Shown here: positions 6,146 to 60,383 of the stretch, piece after piece
Layout of the letters: every line of letters begins with the position of its first letter
Numbering within the stretch: position 1 is the stretch's first letter
NCBI GenBank assembly: GCA_964016885.1
Contig: OZ024743.1
Location: 166,904,001 to 166,968,000, forward strand
Source: Eledone cirrhosa
Lineage: Eukaryota
Reading direction: 5' to 3'
DNA: 64,000 bases
Position numbers and translations under genes: made by a program
The notes under the pieces: generated by a model
Database searches by the model: none
Told to the model about the DNA's origin: nothing
The model's input: the letters and a program-made list of their open reading frames with translations, nothing else

Positions 6146-6569
6146 GTAAATTTCTTTAAGTCGTTTGGAAGCCTCGACAATGCAGATGGGTAAATCTCCG
6201 GGTAACAAGATCCGGTGGTGGAGAGAGAGATGTAAGTGGGTGGACGTTGAGATGTGTGGCGTGTATAAGACTGTAACGTGTAGAGGAATGAAGCAAAGAG
6301 CGTAAAGGATAAAAATAAAAATAACAACACGAGAAAGAGTTACCTTGGGAGACAATTAAATCTCTCCCAACGTAACTCTTTCTCGTGTTGTTATTTTTAT
6401 TTTTATCCTTTACGCTCTTTGCTTCATTCCTCTACACGTTACAGTCTTATACACACCACGCATCTCAACGTACACCCACTTACATCTCTCTCTCCACCAC
6501 CGGATCTTGTTACCCGGAGATTTACCCATCTGCATTGTCGAGGCTTCCAAACGACTTAAAGATATTTAC
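6146..6569. repeat. Long fold-back inverted repeat (~207-bp arms, ~10-nt loop)
   Basis: 6146-6352 is the near-perfect reverse complement of 6363-6569; TA microsatellite on both sides. Confidence 0.95.
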
Positions 6570-43109: not shown

Positions 43110-44105
43110 TGACCAGTGTTTTAAACTTCTATTTATGCCAGTCTAGAATTCTAATCCCCCTTTTTCTCTCGGATTTTCTATTAATATTTTACATATTTTT
43201 AATAATATGCCTCATTCTAAAAACTAACCTTCTCCTAAAGTTACCTATTTCCTGCCCTCCCACCCCCACACACCACCATTGCTAAGTTTGTAAGTTCTCT
43301 TACAAATCTATAGCAAAGCTACCACCTCGGTTATTACTCCTTAAGTTTAGACCTGGTTGATTTCCGGTTTGCGAGGTGGACTGCGGAATTTGGAAATCTG
43401 AACACTCAATGACAATGTCACAGATAAAGATAAATTCACCTCCCGCTGCTGGACGAGAATGCAAAGACCCCCTCTTTATTTCAGACATGGATGACCAACA
43501 TAATTCTGTCTCCCACACCATCCCTGCCCCTCCAAACCATCCATTCCACTCTCCCAACTTCACAGTTGGTACCATGAACGTAGCCACATTGAAAGGTCAC
43601 TCAAATGAGGTTGTAGAGATGCTTGAACATAACGACGTTGATGTTTGTTGTGTTCAAGAGACCAGGTGGAGGTGGGTCTGCTAGATTCATTGTGGGTAAA
43701 AAATGATGCTATAAACATTTCTGGGTGGGAAATGACAACGGACTGGGTGGTGTAGGAAATATGTTAGCTGAAAATTGGGTACATAAGGTAATTGACGTAA
43801 ATAGAGTGAATGACAGAATAATTAAAATAAGACTAGTTCTATATAGAACTACTGTGACAATAATATCCGCTTATGCACCCTAATCTGGTCTACCTGACGT
43901 TATAAAGGACAGGGGTTCTATGAGTCGCTAATGCACACTACTTCCCAAATAACCGATAGCGACTACTGAATTATTGATGGCGACCTAAACAGTCACGTTA
44001 GACAACATAGTGATGGCTATGATGGAATCCATGGAGGCTATGGGTTTGGAAATAGAAATGAGGAAGGCTTCAGATTCCTGGAATTTTGTGACGCTAATAA
44101 CCTAA
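43110..44105 (+). mobile_element. RTE LINE 5' part (UTR + APE), ending at the Tx1 junction
   Basis: VGTMNVATLKG..VCCVQETRW..EFCDANNL. Confidence 0.88.
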
Positions 44106-45297
44106 TGTTAATCTGTCCACAAATGTTCATGGTTGCCTATTCAGATAACAAACTAGTGACCTGCTTAGTCAACCTTGATAGAACCCATAGATAGGGACCC
44201 AGCTACAGGAAGCTGAACATGTTGTTACCGACATGCAAAGCCTACAGTAGACGGATTAGCACTTTGGTTAAGCAGCACTTGACGGAGGTCATTGTCAACA
44301 ACAGATGGTGGTACTCTCTCAAGAGGGCAGTTACATTAGACTCGATAGGTTTTAGTAAAGAATTAGTGTTAGATAGAGATAAGACCGAAAAGGAACTGGT
44401 AAATAAAGTAGAAGAGGCACTTAGGAGTGGCAACATAGCCAGCGTGCTAGCGACGAGAACGGCCTTGGACAAGTTCTTCGACGCAAAGCACGAAGGCTGT
44501 GTTGTCAGGAGCAAAATACGTGCTCTGGGAAACGAGGGAGCCAAAGCTGTTAGCTGGGCCCGAGTGACAGAGGCAAAAAGTGGCAACAAGTCCACAATTC
44601 GTTCTTTGACGGACCAAGACGGACGCGTGATACGTGAGCCGAAGCAGATGTGCGCGGCCTTTCAGCGGCACTTTGCTAAACTATTCGGGCAGGGCGGCAC
44701 GACGGGAGGACCTATGGATTTCAGTCCATACCTCGACGGCCTGCCGTGACTCTCGGACAGCGAGGCGAAGTTCTGCGAAAGGCCGATTTCGGTCGCTGAG
44801 ATAGGGGACACGTTGATCCAAAGCGGCAAATGCAAATCTCCAGGTCTCGACGGTCTACCCTACGAATTTTACGTAGCAATGCCGGACTTCATCTCCAGTC
44901 TTCTGGAAGCGGTCTACTGCAACTGGCAGCAGAACGGGAGAATTCCCAGTTCTGTGACCAAGGGTGTAGTCACGTTAGTCAGGAAGGACGAGAATAAGGG
45001 GGGTGACATAGGGAACTTCTGGCCCATAACTCTGCTAAACACAGAGTTACAGATTTTGGCCAAGGTGTTGGCAAAGAGGCTGGCGCTTGTCGTTGAAAAC
45101 CTGGTGGGAGAAGCGTAAACATGCACAATTCCGACCAGGTCCATACACGACAACCTCCACCTCATGCTATACATCATAGAGAGGTAGAGTGTAAACCCGG
45201 CTACAGTGGGGCTCTGATCAACTTGGATCAGTCTAGGGCTTTTGATAGGGTTGACCATCGTTACCTGGAAGCGGTGCTCGAGGCGGCAGGCTTCGAC
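44106..45297 (+). mobile_element. Tx1-clade LINE internal fragment (ORF2)
   Basis: ORFs 44219..44749 and 44813..45118 are homologous to ORF2 at 54500-55690 (KSPGLDGLPYEFY, PITLLNTE, LDQSRAFDRVDH). Confidence 0.9.
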
Positions 45298-45422
45298 AGA
45301 AGAATACTGCTCGACTATGGCAGACAATGGATATACCCAGGACACCATAGTGAAATACCAATATATGGAACATTACATTTATGTAACATTCTTTCCTTAT
45401 TTTAATTTATATTCCTTTTGAA

Positions 45423-45541
45423 GTTCCGATGAGCTGCTCTATTTTTACCTATGTTAATTATTTACAACTGAACCAGATCAATAATGATCTATAATCATTT
45501 GATCCAGAAATATTATATGAAGTAGCGAAACAATTGTAAAC
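45423..45541 (+). ncRNA. Hammerhead-like motif with CCGAUGA core
   Basis: gtt-CCGATGA-gctgct...agtagc-GAAA-caattg-TA-aac. Confidence 0.55.
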
Positions 45542-45591
45542 GGACATTATTATTATTAATATTATTATTATTATTCTCTACATTGACTACA

Positions 45592-45924
45592 GGAGGCACA
45601 TGGCTTAGTTGTTAGAGCATTGGCATTGCAATCGAAAGGTTGTGAGTTCAATTCTCAGATGGGGTGATGTGTTGTTTCCTTGAGCAAGACACTTTATTTC
45701 ACATTGCTCCAGTTTACTCAGCTGTAGAAATGAGATGATAGGGACTGGGGTCCCTATCATTCCACTGCAAAGTGGTTGTGTAGGTGCCACAGCAAAAAAT
45801 CATCCAGCACTCACTGTAAATGAGGTTGGTGTTATGAAGGGCATCCAGCTGTAGAAATCAAACCAGAATCAGTTTCCGTCCCACCCTTGCAAGCAGGGAA
45901 AAGCGGACGTAAAATGATGATGAT
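45592..45924 (+). mobile_element. tRNA-headed SINE with RTE-derived 3' tail
   Basis: A-box tggcttagttg, B-box gagttcaattc, ccttgagcaagacac body; tail gggcatccagctgtagaa..gcggacgtaaaatgatgatg. Confidence 0.85.
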
Positions 45925-46788: not shown

Positions 46789-49700
46789 ATCATCATCATC
46801 ATCATCATCACCGTTTTACGTCCGTTCTTCCACGCTAGCATGGGTTAGACGGGTTGTCCTGTTGTGGGCAGTGTCTGGTCGGCTGACCATGCCTTGCTCA
46901 TACAGGAACTGATCTGGCTTGATTTCTACAGCTGGATGCCCTTCCTAACACCAACCTCATTTACAGTGAGTGCTGGGTGCTTTTTCGTGGCGCCTACACG
47001 TCCACTTTACAGTGTGGGCTGGGTGCTTTTTTGCCGTGGCACCTCCACGACCACCTTGCGGTGGGGGGTGTGGGGGCATATTGTTTATATGCTTCAGCAT
47101 GTACCCATGGGAGGTCGGGTACCCTGTATTACTGCGTGACGCCAGAAGTCACGGTCGTGTGTCATTGACTTTGAGAGGTGTAGTTGGGTAAGGTCGGCTT
47201 TTATCACCTCATCCCAAGTCATCTTGGGTCTCCCCACTCCGTGGTTTCCATCAACTTCTAGTGCTCTGCACCTTTTTATGCAGCTGTCATCCTTCATACG
47301 CATCACATGTCCATACCAGCGTAACCGCCTCTCCTGCACGCAGCATTTGATTCCTCTTATGCTCAGTCTCTCTCTCAATTCCTTTATGCTTTGTCGTTCA
47401 CGTATATTACTGTTACACATCCATCGGAGCATGCAGGCTTCGTTTCTCTCTAATCTACGTAAGTCTTCCACCTTCAGCGCCCAGGTCTCACTACCATGCA
47501 ACATCGCTGTTCGGATACACGCATCATACAGTCTGCCTTTCATTCTGAGGGAGAAGCCTTTTGCAGCTAGCAGTGGTAGTAGTTCCCTAAACTTCTTCCA
47601 TTCCGTTCTTACCCTAGTTATTGTACTTTCTGAGCACCCACCTCTGTTGCTAATTCGGTCACCTAGGTAGCAGAAGCTGTCTACTGTTTCTACAGGGCCC
47701 TCCCAGAGATTGGTGGTACTTGTTTCCTGTGGCTGTTTGCTTGCTGTTTCAGCACAGCTGCTGCATGTGAATCCTACATTCTTAATTAAGCTTCCTGAGA
47801 TCCCGCTACATCTCTTGTGTACCCATTGTTTGCATTTGGGGCAGAGAATGGAGTTCCTACCTACACCTTTCCTACATACTGAGCAAGGCCATTTCCCTGA
47901 GGGGATCTGGGTTCTGTTTTCTCGTCTACTTATAAGGACCTTAGTCTTTGTCATGTTGACTTTGAGGCCCTTTCTCTCTAGTCCCTGCTTCCAGGTTTGG
48001 AATTTATTCTCTAGTTCTACCATAGATTCAGCTATGAGTGCGAGGTCATCAGCATACAGGAGTTCCCATGGGCATCCGGTCTTAAACTCCTCCGTTATTG
48101 CCTGCAGGACTATGATGAACAGGAGAGGGCTAAGAACAGAGCCCTGGTGGACCCCAACCTGTACGCTAAATTCCTCGCTATACTCATTGCCAATCCTAAC
48201 TTTGCTGACTGCTCCCCTATACATGGCTTGTACCGCTTTCACAAGCCATTCATCTACTCCTAGTTTTCTAAGAGCCCACCAGATTACTGCACGTGGAACT
48301 CTGTCAAAGGCTTTTTCAAGGTCGACAAATGCCAAGTAGAGTGGCTTACTTTTAGCTAGGTACTTTTCCTGTAATTGCCTCACAAGGAAGAGGGCATCAG
48401 TGGTGCCTTTCCCTGGTACAAACCCAAATTGCATCTCGTCTATATTCACCCGGTCCCTAATCAGCTGTGCTATAACTCTTTCTGTTACTTTCATGACCTG
48501 GTCCATCAACTTTATACCTCTATAGTTTCCTCTATCTAGTGCATCGCCTTTACTTTTGTAGCAGTTGACAATGATGCTACTGCACCAATCTTTTGGTATG
48601 GCCCCCTCTAGTATTACCTGGTTAACGATACGTGTGGTTATAGTGTGACCTACAGACCCAGATGCCTTCAGCATCTCGGCAGCTATACCCGATGGACCGG
48701 TTGCCTTCCCTATCTTCATATCTCTGATTGCCTTACTTACTACGCTGCCGCTGACTTGTACTGCTGGTCCCTCTATAGGGTCTACGTGGGGTAGGGTCTC
48801 TTCTTCCCATGCATTCTCCTCATTTAGTAATCTATCATAATGACTCTTCCATGCATCTTTCTTCTCAGCACTTGTGAGGGCAAGCTCACCTTTATCATTC
48901 CGGATACACTTCTCTCCAATGACATCACAACTATCTCTGACACACTGCCTCGCAATCTTGAATACCTCCTGTTTCTGGTCCTCACGTTGTAAAACATGCT
49001 TGAATTTTCTATCCTCTGCTTCCCTCCTAGCTAAGTATACTTGTTGCCTAGCTTCCCTCTTGGTCTCTATGTAATGTACCCTGCTCCCCCCGTTCTTCCA
49101 TTCTTTCCATGCCTGTCTCTTGGCCTTGACTGCTTCATCTACCTTATTGTTCCACCACCAAGTCACTCTCCTCCTGCTTGAGGTCTTACTCCAGCCACAA
49201 ACCTCATCCGTCGCCTCTAGTAAGTTATTTTTTAGGAACTCCCAGTTCTCTTCTACGTTAAATGTCTCTATCTGTTCTTCTTTACTGTCGTAGGCGTTGA
49301 GTAAAATATCTTTAAATCTGTTACTGGTTGAGGGGACTTTCAGCTTCCAGATCTTTCTTCTCCAGGTTGGCCTCTGTTTCGGGGCTCGTCTAGTTCTGAC
49401 CGTGAGGTTGCTGACAACTAAGCTATGTTGGGATGTACATTCCTCACTAGGGAAGGCTTTTGTGTTTACGACCGTCCATCTGTCACGTCTTCTGATGAGG
49501 ATAAAATCTAACTGACTAGAGTGCTCCCCTGATCTATAGGTGATCAGGTGGTTGTCGGGTTTTTTAAAGTTTGTGTTACATATCGACATGTCATTGGCGT
49601 CGCAGAATTCTAGAAGTCTGAATCCTTCCTCATTCCTTGTGCCAACTCCATGGCCTCCATGTACTCTATTGAAGCCGTCGCAGTGTTTACCTACGTGTCC

Positions 49701-50610
49701 GTTAAAATCTCCTGCAATGATTAGGAAGTCCTTGTCGTCTGTTAGAGCAGTAGTGTGTATTAGGGACTCGTAAAACCTATCCTTAAGTTCGTCTGGCAGC
49801 CCCGATTGGGGTGCGTAAGCTGATATTATTGTGGTAATTGTCTTATTCAGGACTAGTCTGAGTTTAATGATTCTTGCATTTACCCTGTACACTGAGATTA
49901 CTTTATCTACCCACTTGTCAGCTAATAGTATACCTACACCACCCATCGTCATTTCCCACCCAGAAAAATTTGTAGCACTGGCTTTTTCCTACAAGGACTC
50001 TAGCAGACCCTCCTCTCCATCTAGTCTCTTGCACACAGCATACATCAACTTCCTTTCGCTCTAGCATTTCTACGATTTCTCCTGCTCTTCCTTTCATTGA
50101 GCCTACATTGATGGTACCAACTCGGAGTTTTGGGCATTTGTCGACACTCGTAGGGGAGGGTCTCTGGGTTGGCGCTTCACGTGGGTGCTTGGTAGCTCGC
50201 AGATTCATATTTCATCTATTGATTCAGAGTTGCTCGTGTATTCCCAGCTCATCCATCCATAACGGTGGGAAAATTGAGGGCTAGAAGAACAGTGGTGGTG
50301 GGGTAATGGCAGTGTGTGTTGGGATGCGCCAGAGGAGGAGAGAGTTAGTTAGGCAGGTAGTAGCAGCAGCAGTGGAAATGGCATGCTAGGTTTGATTGGT
50401 CGAATAGACTATGGTGGTGTGTGGGGGTGGGGGGGGGAGGGAAATTGTGAGGTAGGAACTGAGGGTCGCATGGTAAATATCCAAGTTAATACTACATCAG
50501 TAAAATTAACAATAATAACGTCATGAAAAACTACTAAGAGAAACCCTCGAAAATTTATCGCTAATACAGCAGGGAAAATTTAACGCTAATACAGCAGGGA
50601 ACATCATAAT
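46789..50610 (-). mobile_element. Near full-length RTE LINE (5' UTR, APE-RT ORF with one frameshift, 3' UTR, (GAT)n tail)
   Basis: ORFs 49918..50208 and 47094..49952 (952 aa; GDFNGHVG, FVDLEKAFDRVP, QGSVLSP, YADD) are separated by a single frameshift near 49945. Confidence 0.95.
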
Positions 50611-50699: not shown

Positions 50700-51781
50700 G
50701 ATTCCTAGTCTATGTCGGTTTAACTTAAAATTCAATCTTTTCAATGTTATTCGATAATTCTGTCAGACCCTCGAAAACAATCTTCTACTTGTATTTAAAC
50801 TCTGATTACTGTTATATGCTCGTTTAATTATGGCTGAATTTCTAGGATTATATTATAAAATAACCTTCTCGTTAACTCCTGCAGATCCCCGCCCGCACTC
50901 GCCGCCATTATTATTTGGTCCAATCATAATTCAGCGGCTTATAATATGTTTCTCTTACCAATCTCTTTCACAAAACCACCGCCTCGGCTATCACTTCTTA
51001 AGTTTAGACCTAGTTGCTTTTCGATATGCTCGATGGACTATGGAATTCTGGAGAGTGAAAAATCAGGACATTCAATGACAAAGATAAAGATAAATTTAGC
51101 TCATGTTGCCGGACGAGAATGCGAGGACTCCTCTTTATTTCGGTCGCGGATGGCTAACATAACCCCATCTTCCTCACCCCTCCCTGCACCTCATCCTTCC
51201 CACTCACCAAATGCAATCCAAAACTTCAGAGTTGGTACCATGAATGTAGACACCTTAAAAGGTTGCTCTAACGAGGTTAGCAGAAAAATAGGTAGATAAG
51301 GTAATAGACGTAAATAGAGTGAATGACAGAATAATTAAAATAAGACTAATCCTAAATAGAACTACTGTGACAATAATATCCGCTTATGCACCCCAATCTG
51401 GTCTACTTGACGTTATAAAGGACAGGTTCTATGAGTCGCTAATGCACACTACCTCCCAAATAACCGACAGCGACTACTGAATTATTGCCGGCGACCTAAA
51501 CAGTCATGTGAGACAACATAGTGATGGCTATGATGGAATCCATGGAGGCTATGGGTTTGGAAATAGAAATGAGGAAGGCTTCATAATCCTGGAATTTTGT
51601 GATGCTAATAACCGACAGTGACTACATAATTATTGCTGGCGACCTAAATGATCACGTTGGACAACATTGTGACGGCTATGACAGAATCCATGGAGGCTAT
51701 GGGTTTGGTACTAGAAATAAGAAAGGTTCCAGAATCCTGGAATTCTGTGATGCTAATAACCTAACTATCTGTAACACAAAC
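50700..51781 (+). mobile_element. RTE LINE 5' part (host of the Tx1 insertion)
   Basis: 5' UTR, FRVGTMNVDTLKG, GDLN.HVG..EFCDANNLTICNTN. Confidence 0.88.
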
Positions 51782-52212
51782 AGATCTAGCTGTCGTCTGT
51801 TCTACAGTGTGGATGTCATTCACTTCGCGCAGAAGTTTTGTTCAAATTTATTGCGGAAATTTTGTGAGTTCAAATTTAATTTTGATACTATTGTGTAGCT
51901 TGACCCCCCGTCTGAACTGTCAGGCGGTGGGTCAGCTCATCTTTACCCCTCCTAGAGGTGAAAAACCTATTTTAAAAAATTTTGTGGCAAAAAAAGTTCA
52001 ATCGTCTGACAGAAATGTTAAACGAAGCGAACGAAAATAGTGGTGGGGGGGACAGCGGTAAGAGTTGTAAGCTCGCACGCTTTAGTCCCCCCTTCCTTCC
52101 CAACTAACGTCATAGAGAAGGAAGGAAAAATTAAAATAAAAACAGACGAATCTGTGGAGAAAAAAAATGATGAAAACACAAATCTGGACATGGATTCCAA
52201 CAAGGAATAAAA

Positions 52213-53828
52213 TTGCATGACAATACTAACACCACAAACAAAGACACAACAAACACAAAAATAACATTTGAAAATAACACCATAACAGAAAGCAAAGCAG
52301 ACGACAGAGTCAAGATTTCATTTGCACAAACAACAAAGAAATCTTTGACATATGTAGCCGAAAATATTTCAGATGTGGCACGAAGAATCACAGACGCCAA
52401 ACAATACATAAGTGAAGGAGAGAATGGTATTTTATTGGTAAAAATGCCTCAAGAACTCACCAAAGACATTGAAAGTCGAACGGTCGTGTTCCGCACCATT
52501 AACAACACTTCAAAAAAACCTGAACAGCCTTCTCAAGCAGATATCAAAACAGTACTCACAGAAGTACTTAATGAAACCACTTTCATAAGAAAAGACAGAC
52601 TGTATGGAAGCCTAGCAATTATCATGAAGAACGAATCGGCGGCAAGAAAATGTGCTTTGTCACCGATTCGTTCGAAAAATTTTACCTTTTATCCATCTTA
52701 TATGGGTAAAAGAACTCAACGCATATGGCTGAATGCAATGATGCCAGATGTGGACTACTGCTGGCTCATAGCTGGCTTCATCGATCCAGTGAATGACAAC
52801 GTGATTTCCATTGGGAAAACCACAGGCAATGCGTTCAGTGGAACAGGAATAGAGCTGGTAGTGCAAATGAAGCCTGAACGCATCGCCCAAATACCCGACA
52901 GAATCCTATTAGAGGGCCACGGGTATATAAACATTAGCGTGGAGGGGAGAAGGCCGTCCTGTCATATCTGTGCAGGCAGAGGACACCTGAAGGCCGCTTG
53001 TCCCCAACTCAACAAAAAGAAAACCCTGCTACCAACACCAGCTCCACCACCACAACAGATAAACAAATAACAAAACTCAGTCCCACCCAACCCGTCCCTC
53101 AGTAAAACTACACCACCACCACAACACAAACAGTCACAACACATTACCCCAAAACAAAATACAGGCCCACCCAACCCCTCACTCAATAAAACAACACAAC
53201 CACCGCAGACACAACACACAACACAGTCTAACATAGTGACATCCATCTCCCCCACAAAGAAAACCAACACGGAAACATTACCAGCAAACATACCTCTTCC
53301 CTCCAACACTGAAGATAACCCAACGAATTCGGAGGAAGAAACGGAGTCCTTCAGACAGATTAAAAGGAAAAAAAGAAAACATGTGCAAAACACACAAGGC
53401 CAAACAACCCCCACCCAAATCTCAACACAATCCAACAAAACAGAAAACACCCCTCCAGCAACAAACAAAACCAAACCTGCCCCTCCCCTCTTCGAAACAC
53501 TCACACCATCCGAGAAAAAGACATTACACTATACTTACATCAACAGAAACAATAATAAATTAAATGAACTCATATAAAGATCCCAATGAACCTCTACCAA
53601 AAACTAAAAAAGGATTTTAAGGAGGACGTAGGACCACCCTCTGTCAAACCCATAAACCGCGTCCTACTAAAAAGCTTTCCCCCTCCCCTTCCCCTCCCCA
53701 ACACAACTCCAAACACCCCAACCCCACCACACACTGACGACCCCACACCACCACAAGACACCCCTTCACCCAACACCCCCGACCCCATGGAAGTCGTGCG
53801 ACCCGAACCCCGGGAAGCGGAAAGGTAG
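52213..53828 (+). pseudogene. Tx1 ORF1 (gag-like, CCHC zinc knuckle, P/T-rich tail), interrupted by stops
   Basis: CHICAGRGHLKAAC fits CX2CX4HX4C; continues in ORFs 53236..53577 and 53586..53828. Confidence 0.8.
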
Positions 53829-53861
53829 GTCTCTACACTCTCCTTTGGCTCTGCTGCCCAC

Positions 53862-56800
53862 ATGGATGTGTTAAGAGTAGGATGTTTAAATGCACGTGGC
53901 CTGGGCTCAACTTGGAAGCAAGCAAAGCTTCTAAATGACCTCAGGTCATGTGGTATAAATGTAATGATTATCTGTGAGATTCGGATCAGCGTCGTGCGGC
54001 AGCTGGCCCCTACCTTCGATGACTTTGAGGTGCATGCATCTCTCTGTCAACCTGGAGGTGGGGGTGGGGTTGTCGTACTGCTGCAAAAACACCTGGGTCT
54101 TGCCGTACAGGTTGTGCACTCGGACCCGGAGGGTCGTTTGTTGGTGCTAGACGTTGGTAGTAGTGAAGGTGCGGCCTTAAGACTGGTCGCCGTCTACTCC
54201 CCTTTCGGAGCTGAACGGCCCAACTTCTTCCAGCGTTTAGAGACTTTTCTGGGAACGTCGCGTTCCCTGCTTCTAGCGGGGGATTGGAATGACATCCTAG
54301 ATGCACGTTGGGACTATGCAGGAGCATGTCCTAATAGAGGGGGGTGTAACAGCCTCAAGGGGTTACTCGACCGTTTTAACTTGGTCGATAGATATCGACT
54401 AGATTTTCCAACTGTGCCCACCTGGACTTGGAGAAACCACAGTGGTCAATCTAGATCGTACTTAGATAGATTCTTAGTTAGAAGTAAGGATAGGGACATA
54501 TTAAGCTGTCCAGAAATGCGCACGGTTGGCTACATGGATCACAAATTAGTGACCTGCGTAGTCAATCTCGAGAAAACACATAAACAGGGTCCCGGTTACT
54601 GGAAACTTAATTTGTCTTTACCGGCAAAAGAGACTTACAGAAACCGGATTAGCAGATTAGTTAAGGAGAGGTTGACGGGTGCAATCGTCAACAACCGATG
54701 GTGGGCATCTCTCAAAAGAGAGATTAAAACAGAATCAATAAGTTATAGCAAGATGTTAGCTGCCGATAGAAATAGAAACGAGAAAGAATTAACAGGTAAA
54801 TTAGAAGAGGCAATCAAGAGCGAAGATGTGGCCAGAGTGCTGGCATCGAGGACGGCCTTGAACCAGTTTTTCGATGCAAAGCACGAAGGCTGCGTCATTC
54901 GAAGTAAAATACGTGCTCTAGGTAATGAGGGGGCCAAAGCCGTTGGCTGGGCCCGCGTGACAGAAGCTAAGAGTGGAAATCGATCCACCATCCGGTCGTT
55001 GCAAGACGAAGATGGACGGGTGATCCGGGAGCCTAAGCAGATGTGCGAGGCCTTTCAAAGGCACTTTGCCCGATTGTTCGGGGGAGGCGAGGGTCCGGGC
55101 GGGGGCGTGGATTTCGGTCCATACCTCGACGGCCTGCCGCGTCTCTCGAGCAAAGAGGCAGAGTCCTGCGAGGGACCAATCTCGGCTGATGAGATCGGAG
55201 ATGCGCTGAGCCAATGCAGCAGACGCAAATCTCCAGGTCTCGATGGTATACCTTATGAACTTTATTTAGCAATGCCGGTCTTCTTCTCCGAACTCCTCGA
55301 AGCGGTCTACTGCAATTGGCAGCAGAACGGGAGAATTCCTTGTTCTGTAGCCAAAGGCGTAGTCACGCTGGTGAGGAAGGACGAGAACAAGGGAGATAGT
55401 ATAAATAATTTTCGGCCCATAACCCTGCTAAACACAGAGTTAAAGATTTTGGCCAAGGTGTTAGCAAAGAGGTTGGCGCTTGTCGTGGGTGGCCTGGTGG
55501 GAGATGCGCAGACATGTGCTATCCCATCCAGGTCCATTCACGATAACCTCCACCTCATGCGATACATCATAGAGAGGGTTGGCAACAAACCCGGCTTCGA
55601 TGGGGCCCTGATCAACTTGGATCAGTCTAAGGCCTTCGATAGGTTCGACCATGGTTACCTGGATGCGGTGCTAGCGGCGGCTGGGTTTGGTCCTGTTCTA
55701 GGATCAAGGTGAACGGCTACCTTTCGAAGCCGTTCGAAATCACACGATCCATTCGACAGGGGTGCCCTCTCTCCTCCCTTCTGTACGTATTGACTCTCGA
55801 GCCTTTACTGAGGAAGTAGGAGTTGTTGCAGGGCATCCCCCTGGAACCAGGATTGAGCAAAGCGGTGTCGGCCTACGCCGATGACGTAACAGTAATGGTA
55901 TCGACCGACTCGGAGATCGAGGCGATCGGTACCTTACTGGAGGATTACGAAAGGTTGTCAGGAGCGAAACTGAACCGGGAAAAATCCATCGGGCTGCAAC
56001 TCGGAACGTGGAGAGGCAGACCGATGCCTCCCGACGGTGTCGTCGGACACTGGACGGAGGGCCCGGTAAAGTTGCTTGGGGTCTGGTTTGGACCGGACCT
56101 CCAGGTGGAAAAGAACTGGAACGAGGTTACGAACAAGGTGTTTGCACTAACCCAGAAATGGGCCAAGTGTAAGCTGTCCCTAAAAGGCCGGGCGGAGGTG
56201 GCGAACATTTACATAGCGTCCGTCACTTACTACCGCCTGACTGTCGTGCCTTGCCCTAAGGAAACACTCACCACCATGGAACGCATGCTCTTCCAATTTC
56301 TTTGGAAGAAGCGCCCTCCTATGGTGAGAAGATCCATCTGCTGCCAACAACGTTCGAAAGGAGGGCTGGGGATGCCGTGGTTGATGATGCGTAGGCACGC
56401 ATTAAGGCTACGGCACCTACAGGTATTCCTCACTGGTCAACCGGTGTGGGCTCTGTTCGTGAAACGAGCCTTTCCGAGACTCGTCTCGCTCACCGAGCTA
56501 CAGTCCTGGGTCAAGCAAAGATCCAGAAAACTGGGAGACTGGCACACTGAGTGTGCTCAGGCGCTCAGGGCTCTCTGGCAAGCGGGCCAGGCCATCGGTG
56601 GAGAATCCACCTCATCATTCTATAGAGGGCTGGTGGCTAGCAGGGGCGATGACACCCTTGGAGAGTCGCTAGACATGGAGGAAGACGAACTGGCCAGCCT
56701 GTTCGGTAGGATTTTCGGCCCAGGACCAATGGACAACTTCCAGAAGTCACTGGCCTGGCAGTGCTACCGAGGGGCTCTACCCGTTCGAGAGAGGCTCTAC

Positions 56801-57256
56801 AGACACGGGCGCCTGGGCAGGGATCCCTCAAAAAAGATTTGCCCTCGATGCGTGCGTCACGAAGAAACCGTTGCGCACGCATTGGTGCAATGTCCGGGCA
56901 TGGCTGATCTGTGGGGCTACGCCGAACGACTGGTGTCGCGGGTGGCGCCGATTCAATTGACCGCCGAGTCCGTGATGACAATCAAGCCGCCTCCCCTCTT
57001 CACAAAGGAAGCAAAGGCGGTTTTTCTGTGCGTAATAGCCATGTTGAAAGAGGTTGTTTGGTGGACACGATTGAAAGGTCTGAGGTCAGGCAACTTCCTC
57101 TCTGGCCAGAGTCTGGTCTACTTCTTCCGATATCACTTCGGAAGAAGGATAAGAATGGAGAGAGAGGTGTTTGGCCACAGGCAGTTTTATGAAAGGTGGG
57201 TGATAGTGGCTAGAATGGCTCATGTAAATGGGCCTCCTCTGTATACCATCCTGTAG
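53862..57256 (+). pseudogene. Tx1 ORF2 (APE + RT + C-terminal Cys/His motif), disrupted near 55700-55820
   Basis: CLNARGL, GDWN, SYLDR, DHK..V, GPGYWKLN, KSPGLDG, SAYADD, LSLKGR, GGLG, CPRC...ETVAHALVQC. Confidence 0.92.
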
Positions 57257-57474
57257 GTAAAGAAGTAAAGGAGAGGGGAGCACCTTCTCCATGTGCTCCC
57301 CGGGCAAAGGATTGCACACTTTTTCGGGGGTGTGTGCAACCCCCATCACGTCCCTTCCCTTTTGAGGTTATTTTCGATTATTTTCATGTTATACCCTTTT
57401 TACTCGATTGTATGTAAACTACCCCCTTTGTATTTGTCCCTTCTTTTTATGCCTTTATGGTAAATAAAGAAATA

Positions 57475-60383
57475 TATCTGTAACACAAACTTCAAAAAAC
57501 GAGACAATCACTTGATCACCTATAGATCAGGGGAACACGTCAGTCAGATAGATTATATTCCTTACCAAAAGACGTGACAGAGTGTCTGTTGTAAACACTA
57601 AATCCCTCCCCCATGAAGGTTGCACCTCCCAACATAGCCTCATAGTTAGCGACCTCATAGTCAGGATGAGACGTACTCGACAACAGAGGAGGACTACCCT
57701 AAGGAGAAGAATATGGAAGTTAAAGGACCTCACAACCAGTAACAAATTTAAAAGCATATTACTTGATGCTTTTGACAGTAAGGAAGAGCAATTAGAGACG
57801 TACAATATAGAGGAAGAGTGGGAATTCCTGAAAGTTAACCTGCTGACGGCAACAGATGAAATCTGTGGCTGGAGCATACCTATAGGGAGGAGGAGAGTAA
57901 TGTGGTGGTGGAACAGTAAGGTGGAGGAGTCAATCAAGGCCAAAAAGCAGGCTTGGAAAGTATGCCGTGATGGGGGAAGTAGAGAACACTATCAAGTGCT
58001 CAGGATGGAAGCTAGGAGACAAGTGTACTTTGCAAGAAGGGAAGCAGAGGAAAGAAAGTTCAAGCATGTTCTACAATGCGAGGACCAAAAACGTGAGGTG
58101 TTCAGGATTGCTAGGCAATGTGTAAAAGAAAACCGTGATATTGTCGAGAAGTGTGTCCATAATGATGATGGTGTACTTGCCATCACTGATGCTAATAAGA
58201 AGGTAGCATGGAAGTATCACTACGAGAGACTACTAAATGAGGAAAACAAATGGGAAAAAGATAGTCTGCCCCAAATTGATCCAATAGAGGGACCAACAGT
58301 GCAAGTTAAAGGTACTATAATAAGTAAGGCAATCAAAGATATGAAGACAGGCAAGGCAGCTAGGCCTTCAGAGATAGTTGCTGAAATGCTGAAAGCATCT
58401 GGAAATATTGAAGGCATCTGGTATGGTGGGACACACTATGGTCACCCGTATAGTTAACCAAATAATGGAGAATGGGGTCATACCGAAAGACTGGCATAGC
58501 AGCATCATCATTAACTGCTACAAGGGTAAAGGAGATGCTCTAGATAAGGGAAACTAGAGAGGCATTAAGTTAGTTGACCAGGTCATGACGGTCACAGAAA
58601 GAGTTATAGTGCAACTAATCAGAGAGCGAATTGATCTAGATGAAATGCAGTTTGGGTTTGTGTCAGGTAAAAGTAACACAGACGCTCTTTTCCTTGAATG
58701 ACAACTACAGGAGAAGTACCTAGCTAAAAGGAAACCCCTATACTTAGCTTTTGTAGACCTGAAGAAAGCATTTGACAGAGTCCTCCGCTCCATTATCAGG
58801 TGGGCTCTTAGAAAGCTAGGTGTAGATGAATGACTTGTGAGAGCTATACAAGCTATGTATAAAGAAACAGTCACAATGAATATTGTGAAGAATTTTGTGT
58901 GAAAGTTCGCGTTCATCAAGGCTCTGTCCTTAGCCCCCTCCTATTTATTATTGCCTTTCAGGCTATAACAGAGGAGTTCAAGACCGGCTGCCCATGGGAA
59001 CTCCTATACACAGATGATCTAATGCTCATAGCTGAATCAATGGCTGAACTAGAGAAGAAATTCCAAACATGGAAGGATGGCCTAGAATCAAAAGGCCTTA
59101 AAGTTAACTTGTCTAAGACTAAAGTTCTAGTTTGTAGAAAGGAAAATAGGGCACAGGTGCCCTCAGGGAAATGGCCATGCTCAGTGTGTAGGAAAGGAGA
59201 AGGCAGAAATTCCATTTTATTTACCAAATGCAAAGTATGGGTACATAAAAGATGTAAGTGGGATCACAGGAAAACTATCTAAGAACGTAGACTTTATATG
59301 TGTCCAATGCTCAGGTGCAATAAGTAGCAAGTGCCCACAGGATACTAGCTCCTTCTATTGCCCAGATGGTTCTATAGAAATAGTAGACACTTTCCGTTAC
59401 CTGGGTGACGAAATCAGCAGTGGTGGAGGGTGTTCTGAAAGTACAGTAGCCAGGGTCAGAACGGGATGGAAAAAGTTCAGAGAGCTTATACCGTTGTTGG
59501 CCACAAAAGATTTCTCTCTAAAAATTGTATGATGCCTGATTGTATGATGCCTGTATACGAACATCAATGCTACATGGCAGTGGGACATGGGCATTATGTG
59601 CAGAGGACCTGTGCAGACTGGAAAGGAATGAAGCATGCATGCTCCGTTGGATGTGAAATAGTAATATACGTGAACGGCAAAGCATAAATGAACTAAGTGA
59701 GAAATTAGGAATAAGAGGGATCAGATGCTGTTTACTTGAGAGAAGACTACGTTGGTATGTCATGTGATGCGCATGAAAGACGACAGCTGCATAAAAAAGT
59801 GCAGGGCGATCAAAAGTGATGGTAGTTACAGAGTAGGTAGACCCAGAAAAACCTGGGACAATCTGATAAATTCCGACCTTACACACTTGCACCTCTCTAA
59901 GACAATGTCACTCGACCGAGATCTTTGGCGCTACGCAGTAATACAGAAGACCCGCACTGCCTATGTACAAAGCGAAACCTACAGTCAGTAGGCACCTCTC
60001 AACCAAATATACACCCCAACCCACTACCCCTACCCTATCCTCCCACTCCCACCAACACCACCCTGTCTCTGTAAAGTTGGTACCACAACATCCAGTCCAA
60101 ATAAATGAGATAATGAGATTGAGATTGATAGGTGTCACGACAAAAAAACACACAGCCCACACTGTAATGTGGCCATGTAGGTAACACGGTAAAAATTTCC
60201 CAGTTCCACACTGTAAATGTGGTTGGTGTTAGGAAGGGCATCCAGCCATAGAAAACCTGCCAGATAGTCCTATATGAGCGAGACACAGTCACCCGACCAA
60301 CCTTGCCTCAAGTGGGACAACTCCCGTCTAACCCATGCTAGCATGGAAGATGGACGTTAGACGATGATGATGAAGATGATGAT
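57475..60383 (+). mobile_element. Remainder of the host RTE LINE (end of APE, RT, 3' UTR)
   Basis: Resumes ICNTNFKK exactly after the TSD; ORFs 57582..58457 and 58899..59282; (GAT)n tail. Confidence 0.92.

Follow-up and report, generated by a model that had tools for sequence, protein, structure and literature searches.

A Tx1-like retrotransposon lineage of Eledone cirrhosa resides mainly in (TATC)n repeats and recurrently inserts at a similar motif in an RTE LINE

The Tx1 targets given in the portion of PMC4494074 drawn on here are Tx1D, U2, the microsatellites (TC)n, (TTC)n, (TTCC)n and (TTTC)n, Mariner, Harbinger and LTR retrotransposons, and a family is counted there as target-specific above 20% of flanks. 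Transposons and microsatellites are among the known targets in the part of PMC4640811 used as well. The lineage described below resembles Kibi, Koshi and the crocodilian microsatellite-targeting Tx1 families, which insert in (TC)n, (TTC)n, (TTCC)n or (TTTC)n, in belonging to the L1 group, in having an apurinic-type endonuclease and in using one short-unit microsatellite (same portion of PMC4494074). The unit here is TATC (GATA), unlike in Kibi and Koshi, and the likeness meant here is one of target habit. Repeated insertion at a fixed position of a mobile element, a second trait of our lineage, is described in that portion for Xenopus Tx1L in Tx1D, Tx1-Mar in Mariner-N4_AMi and Tx1-9_AMi in Harbinger, and a retrotransposon serves as host for Tx1-8_Crp and Tx1-4_AMi, which insert in LTR retrotransposons. 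Unlike these transposon-targeting families as described there, our lineage has only 0.15-0.36% of its ends in the host element, against the 20% bar, and the host is a non-LTR element. For octopods, the parts of PMC13282606 and PMC8967140 used here describe both clades, L1-Tx1 and RTE (RTE-BovB), as expanded or recently active. Target sites do not come up in these parts, and the main text of PMC13282606 contains neither 'target' nor 'nested'.

The window (the whole 64,000-nucleotide stretch of DNA analysed) contains an L1/Tx1-type element inserted in an RTE LINE, with the following features.

50905..51781, + strand: left half of the host RTE (5' region and start of the endonuclease), a mosaic of two RTE subfamilies
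51766..51781, + strand: left copy of the 16-bp target-site duplication, with the identical 16-mer at the other end
51782..57474, + strand: L1/Tx1-type non-LTR retrotransposon of family A, near full length, inactivated
52015..53828, + strand: ORF1, broken by stops and deletions, with a C-X2-C-X4-H-X4-C knuckle at 52960-53001
53862..57256, + strand: ORF2, with apurinic-type endonuclease, reverse transcriptase and zf-RVT
57257..57474, + strand: 3' UTR, with AATAAA and a few bases at its end
57475..57490, + strand: right copy of the duplication, continuing into the RTE in register
57475..60130, + strand: right half of the host RTE (rest of the endonuclease, reverse transcriptase), with several frameshifting indels independent of the insert

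The longest string common to both ends of the insert is the 16-mer at 51766-51781 and 57475-57490. Its start would place the cut at C/TATCT (51765/51766; a slash marks the cut), the same start as in all 31 duplications traced at this RTE site. The host reads ...EFCDANNLTICNT / ICNTNFKK... across the site, and removing the insert in silico restores an RTE endonuclease reading ...EFCDANNLTICNTNFKK.... In most other copies of family A the 5' end starts at the position equivalent to 51784. The insert is 97-98% identical to its closest kin, and neither poly(A) nor a repeat tail lies between the end of the 3' UTR and the duplication. Of the 17 regions examined for full-length copies, several hold an intact ORF2 of 1145-1146 aa (L187, L189, L193 and one copy in an array), and ORF1 measures 580-625 aa in open copies. 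Compared with the open copy L189, the window copy has a 43-nt deletion near 55693, which shifts the frame within the reverse transcriptase, and a stop at 55817; two further deletions have removed 13 nt near 52213 and some 70 nt near 53576. The first-pass annotation had described a complete Tx1 element with a clean 16-bp duplication in an RTE endonuclease; insert, duplication and location are confirmed, and "complete" has to give way to near full length but dead, with deletions, a frameshift and a stop.

A zinc knuckle in ORF1 is a Tx1 trait. The element has two ORFs, the first with a CCHC knuckle, as in the Tx1 clade, and a Pfam search with ORF1 gave no match. ORF2 matches the profiles PF03372 and PF00078 above the cut-off and PF13966 just below it (E 1.2e-5), and so has the endonuclease, reverse transcriptase and C-terminal zinc-binding domain of that clade. 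Its best match among solved structures is human L1 ORF2p (E 1.5e-49; R2, 8e-21), and its bit score is 70 with the RTE of the window but 270 with a coral protein that bears the name 'Transposon TX1 uncharacterized 149 kDa protein', although identity to the coral protein is only 30% over 650 aa and its name was assigned automatically. These comparisons place the element in the L1 group rather than with R2 or RTE. Among named proteins, one of Argonauta hians comes closest (66%), and cluster look-ups added no other names; matches in the ESM Atlas were to generic endonuclease-reverse transcriptase clusters only, and a metagenome scan found no relative. We call the element Tx1-like, a label drawn from architecture and similarity.

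The 3.0-Gb assembly was searched with the 3' end, which gave 941 candidates, of which 40 were scored and 30 fetched. In the best 30 of the 941, the window copy apart, 25 of 29 other close copies have at least two TATC units in the 30 nt after the 3' end. RTE sequence was found on the 3' side of 0/29 of these copies, and a same-strand relative lies within 1.5 kb downstream in 12 of them. Of 29 other 5' ends, 28 lie within TATC repeats, and 0/29 adjoin the RTE site. Counted by pattern, the genome holds 1,327 3' ends of family A and 7,794 of sister families. By eye, no RTE site was seen among the first 100 matches listed in either the family A or the sister-family search, both drawn from the start of contigs C1-C2 only. 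When the tail pattern is broadened, TATCT is followed by C, G or T at 852 ends; thus at most about 11% leave the repeat phase, and about nine in ten or more remain in it.

The repeat could in principle be a tail made by the element itself, a candidate that the unique sites and the presence of the repeat on both flanks rule out. Where the site is unique, the gap between the end of the element and the duplication is only 1-2 nt, and duplications begin at TATCT. Because, in addition, the repeat stands on both sides of the copies, (TATC)n is the target and not a tail. With 25 of 29 3' flanks and 28 of 29 5' flanks in one microsatellite, well above 20%, the lineage is microsatellite-targeting in the published sense. 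The 9,121 counted ends compare with 27,717 starts of (TATC)4 tracts, or 0.33 ends per tract start. Head-to-tail arrays with (TATC)n spacers were found at C1:168.10-168.12 Mb and C4:310.71-310.72 Mb.

The first-pass annotation had proposed a family that site-specifically targets an RTE LINE, and a tabulation of 3' flanks as a check. That tabulation shows no RTE enrichment, with 0/29 among the close copies and 0.15-0.36% at the RTE site family-wide. Nor are the flanks random: they consist of (TATC)n, which upholds sequence selectivity and counts against the RTE as the target. The proposal of an RTE-targeting family is not borne out, since only 2/1,327 and 28/7,794 ends lie at the RTE site and the main flank is (TATC)n.

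Several observations concern the copies themselves. The arrays at C1:168095000-168124999 and C4:310710500-310730499 consist of 5.8-kb family A copies and end against older copies of sister families; one family A copy in an array has an open ORF2. A second recurrent non-microsatellite target was also seen: the same repeat lies downstream of L212, L240 and L242 (site at 6516), with flanks 94-96% alike over 320 nt, and makes up 3 of the first 100 ends listed. L207 and L245 have 48 nt of another flank in common.

At the RTE, a pattern joining the element end to the RTE site gave 57 matches genome-wide, 28 of them exact, and the reversed control gave 0. All 57 loci were fetched, and in 55 the RTE continues in register downstream. 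A script traced duplications of 6-19 bp at 31 of the junctions, all starting at the same nucleotide; the inserts at these loci range from 13 to 4,906 nt, and three belong to family A. Another 25 junction loci divide into 10 in which the left half of the RTE is present together with a duplication or a minor deletion of the target, and 15 in which no left half was found within 2 kb. The inserts span at least five sequence clusters. These are independent insertions, with duplications, at one fixed position of the host. The RTE site is a true secondary hotspot, hit repeatedly, and the first-pass suggestion of a sequence-selective element is supported to that extent. Inserts of only about 7-26 nt occur at the hotspot in L069, L100, L124, L128 and L078, and in some very short ones (L069, L100) the join runs through an AATAA microhomology and target bases are missing.

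The hotspot takes a small share of insertions. At the RTE site lie 2/1,327 ends of family A (0.15%) and 28/7,794 of the sister families (0.36%), both lower bounds with numerators restricted to junctions that fit the denominator patterns; this share in the host transposon stays far below 20%. The site receives 39/852 (4.6%, a lower bound) of the ends outside the repeat phase. A total of 5,452 empty RTE sites were found within two mismatches, so that, with 57 junctions, the filled fraction of RTE sites is about 1%. In a tree built from 153 ends, 30 rows come from the RTE site and require 25 label changes, compared with a mean of 27.5 after shuffling (35 of 500 shuffles were as low), and no RTE-specialist branch or subfamily was seen on it. 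Rows without full-length matches (31/198) had been left out earlier, and 14/167 in which the 300 nt held host or repeat sequence were left out after that.

The bases preceding TATCT at 11 traced sites outside RTE and arrays are most commonly (C)TATC, with C at -1 in 9, T at -2 in 8, A at -3 in 6 and T at -4 in 8; tracing succeeded at 11 of 40 unique sites, and at 3 of 30 at shorter range. The RTE site, CTAAC/TATCTG, is one mismatch from CTATC/TATCT. The class YTAWC/TATCTG has 25,476 sites genome-wide, at least 5,452 of which (21%; 66 of the first 100 listed) are RTE, and the class was defined after the RTE site had been seen: W at -2 admits the RTE, and A stands there in only 1 of the 11 other sites. 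RTE accounts for 8/29 TATCTG-class insertions in the first 100 listed and for at least 39 of an estimated 247 genome-wide, and TATCTG insertions do not all fall within the YTAWC class. Estimated occupancy is about 1% for the motif class, an upper bound, and for the RTE site alike. Compared with a generic TATCT site the RTE site is about 47-fold higher, on a genome estimate scaled up from the 64-kb window alone. Two other sites of the same RTE served as controls, both antisense to it: TAATC/TATCTG, kept in 29 of 51 RTE copies, had 0 junctions, and a C/TATCT site that reads TCCCC before the cut, kept in 35 of 42 copies, had 1, a true RTE hit. As a target, the RTE site may surpass the average motif site a few-fold.

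Any insert at the hotspot splits the endonuclease region of its host. Of 55 hosts, 49 are interrupted by a stop within the 300 codons downstream and 6 stay open throughout; three hosts share the same sequence over 300 bp and carry different inserts. With the six open hosts and the three identical ones, young RTE copies were among those hit. The earlier view that insertion disables the host LINE is right in that the endonuclease is split, but this has little weight, given that about 1% of sites are filled, 49/55 hosts have a stop and the window host is frameshifted independently; at 1% occupancy the RTE family is probably hardly burdened.

The host in the window has a composite left half. Over 51161-51781 it follows one subfamily to 51286, then a 338-nt patch of another (51276-51613), then the first again; about 146 nt are passed over and 154 nt occur twice, and there is a 7-nt microhomology whose end lies 4 nt short of the hotspot. 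The mosaic may reflect a double template switch or out-of-register conversion. The neighbouring stretch 43763-44102 was considered as the source of the patch and rejected, being no closer (94.4%) than other loci (94.1%). A different RTE copy, at 47094-49988 on the minus strand, has a 964-codon open frame with endonuclease, reverse transcriptase and PHD finger; at the corresponding position it has neither TATCT nor an insert.

A second junction lies in the window, 7.7 kb from that of the full-length element.

43320..44105, + strand: second RTE copy, of another subfamily, ending 1 nt before the hotspot (start approximate)
44105..45295, + strand: internal fragment of an older sister family, with no duplication and no 3' end

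The fragment is 76.8% identical to the full-length element and 89-95% to its own sister-family kin. The junction has 1 nt of microhomology, the left half of a duplication is absent and the 3' end is lost; in its place, 45296-45600 is a repeat with one further match among the fetched loci (L051, 95% over 106 nt). Intact 3' ends of this sister family mostly run into TATC repeats, and among those shown none is followed by RTE. The RTE side of the junction is absent from the other 39 of the 40 scored hits. Because about seven true insertions have a duplication of 3 bp or less or a small deletion, 44105 is possibly a real insertion; it may be a real insertion junction or a later deletion breakpoint. 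The first-pass annotation had a second, diverged Tx1 copy joining a different RTE copy within 1-2 nt of the same point. The position, 1 nt before the cut, and the divergence hold; the copy is an internal fragment with the duplication absent, and its junction is only a possible insertion junction. The two copies do not stem from one event or one ancient insertion, since they belong to different element families and different RTE subfamilies.

Together, our results suggest, with a probability of roughly 85%, a microsatellite-targeting Tx1-like lineage that inserts mostly in (TATC)n and cuts a (C)TATC/TATCT motif mimicked by CTAAC/TATCTG of the RTE. Recognition of the motif by the endonuclease and the nick positions are predicted as follows. 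The endonuclease would nick the bottom strand at C/TATCT, and the nick would prime reverse transcription, the usual priming mechanism; a second nick 6-19 bp downstream would give rise to the duplication. Each insertion leaves TATC repeats at both ends, so later copies insert beside earlier ones and head-to-tail arrays result. Tandem insertions sandwiching a duplication are described for SINEU-3 in the portion of PMC4494074 drawn on here. The RTE is the commonest single non-microsatellite target seen because its more than 5,000 copies each present an almost perfect motif. Its share of insertions is well under 1%, and it is a side target rather than an object of dedicated parasitism.

One could speculate, although we think it unlikely, that this Tx1 lineage stands at the start of a target switch, in which a motif within the coding sequence of the RTE endonuclease resembles (TATC)n as well as the 3' junction of the element itself and has become a stable second target of at least five subfamilies, favoured beyond the motif, with each hit splitting the host endonuclease. 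Quite improbable, too, is the related reading that (TATC)n is the main target and the RTE is favoured beyond the short motif, through resemblance to the element's own 3' junction or because transcribed RTE is accessible, as an incipient shift. Before the cut the RTE has GCTAATAA, six bases and TATCT, and the element's 3' junction has GCTAATAA, seven bases and TATCT; the octamer before the RTE cut is common to the 3' end of the sister families, and the very short inserts L069 and L100 use microhomology. Sister families with GCTAATAA have 0.36% of ends at the RTE site against 0.15% in family A, which lacks it, with overlapping intervals, and the junction at -1 lies near the first. However, per-site occupancy at the RTE is no higher than in the motif class, and, on known priming geometry, homology upstream of the nick should be unable to prime reverse transcription. 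A modest extra preference for the RTE site beyond the motif may exist.

It is very improbable that the lineage is RTE-specific, parasitising that LINE and finding its main safe harbour in the endonuclease region. In favour of this, a single nucleotide received 57 junctions where the reversed control gave 0, the events are independent, two other RTE sites yielded 0 and 1, and young RTE copies were hit. But the family-wide counts (2/1,327 and 28/7,794) refute it for the families counted, although a rare family with a different 3' end would escape such counts, the tree has no specialist branch and about 1% of RTE sites are filled. The 3' and 5' flanks together with these counts rule out the RTE as the main target. 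Finally, that one or a few old insertions were spread by RTE amplification or segmental duplication has next to no probability: some inserts are identical over the last 300 nt and three hosts over 300 bp, but the 31 traced inserts differ in length and duplication and span at least five clusters, the three identical hosts bear different inserts, the 44105 junction is unique among 40 scored hits, and differing 5' truncation points exclude a single amplified ancestral chimera.

Thus, the (TATC)n lineage works like Kibi and Koshi, with a repeat unit that is new as far as searched, and is not of the transposon-targeting kind. No Tx1 family targeting TATC/GATA or a LINE was found in the literature searched, a set that leaves aside Repbase and the supplementary target lists of PMC4494074. 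As a parasitic strategy, too, it is not new: Tx1 families with transposons as targets, LTR retrotransposons among them, have already been published. What is gained is a named target, (TATC)n, for an abundant and recently active lineage with more than 9,000 3' ends and copies with an open ORF2. Its elements are located at a large share of the GATA repeats of the genome, which they also duplicate (9,121 ends against 27,717 tract starts). The RTE hotspot provides a natural experiment on endonuclease specificity, with the same cut nucleotide, duplications of 6-19 bp and thousands of empty sites as the denominator. If the speculated target switch were true, it would illustrate the origin of transposon-targeting families, Tx1-Mar for example, from families that target repeats.
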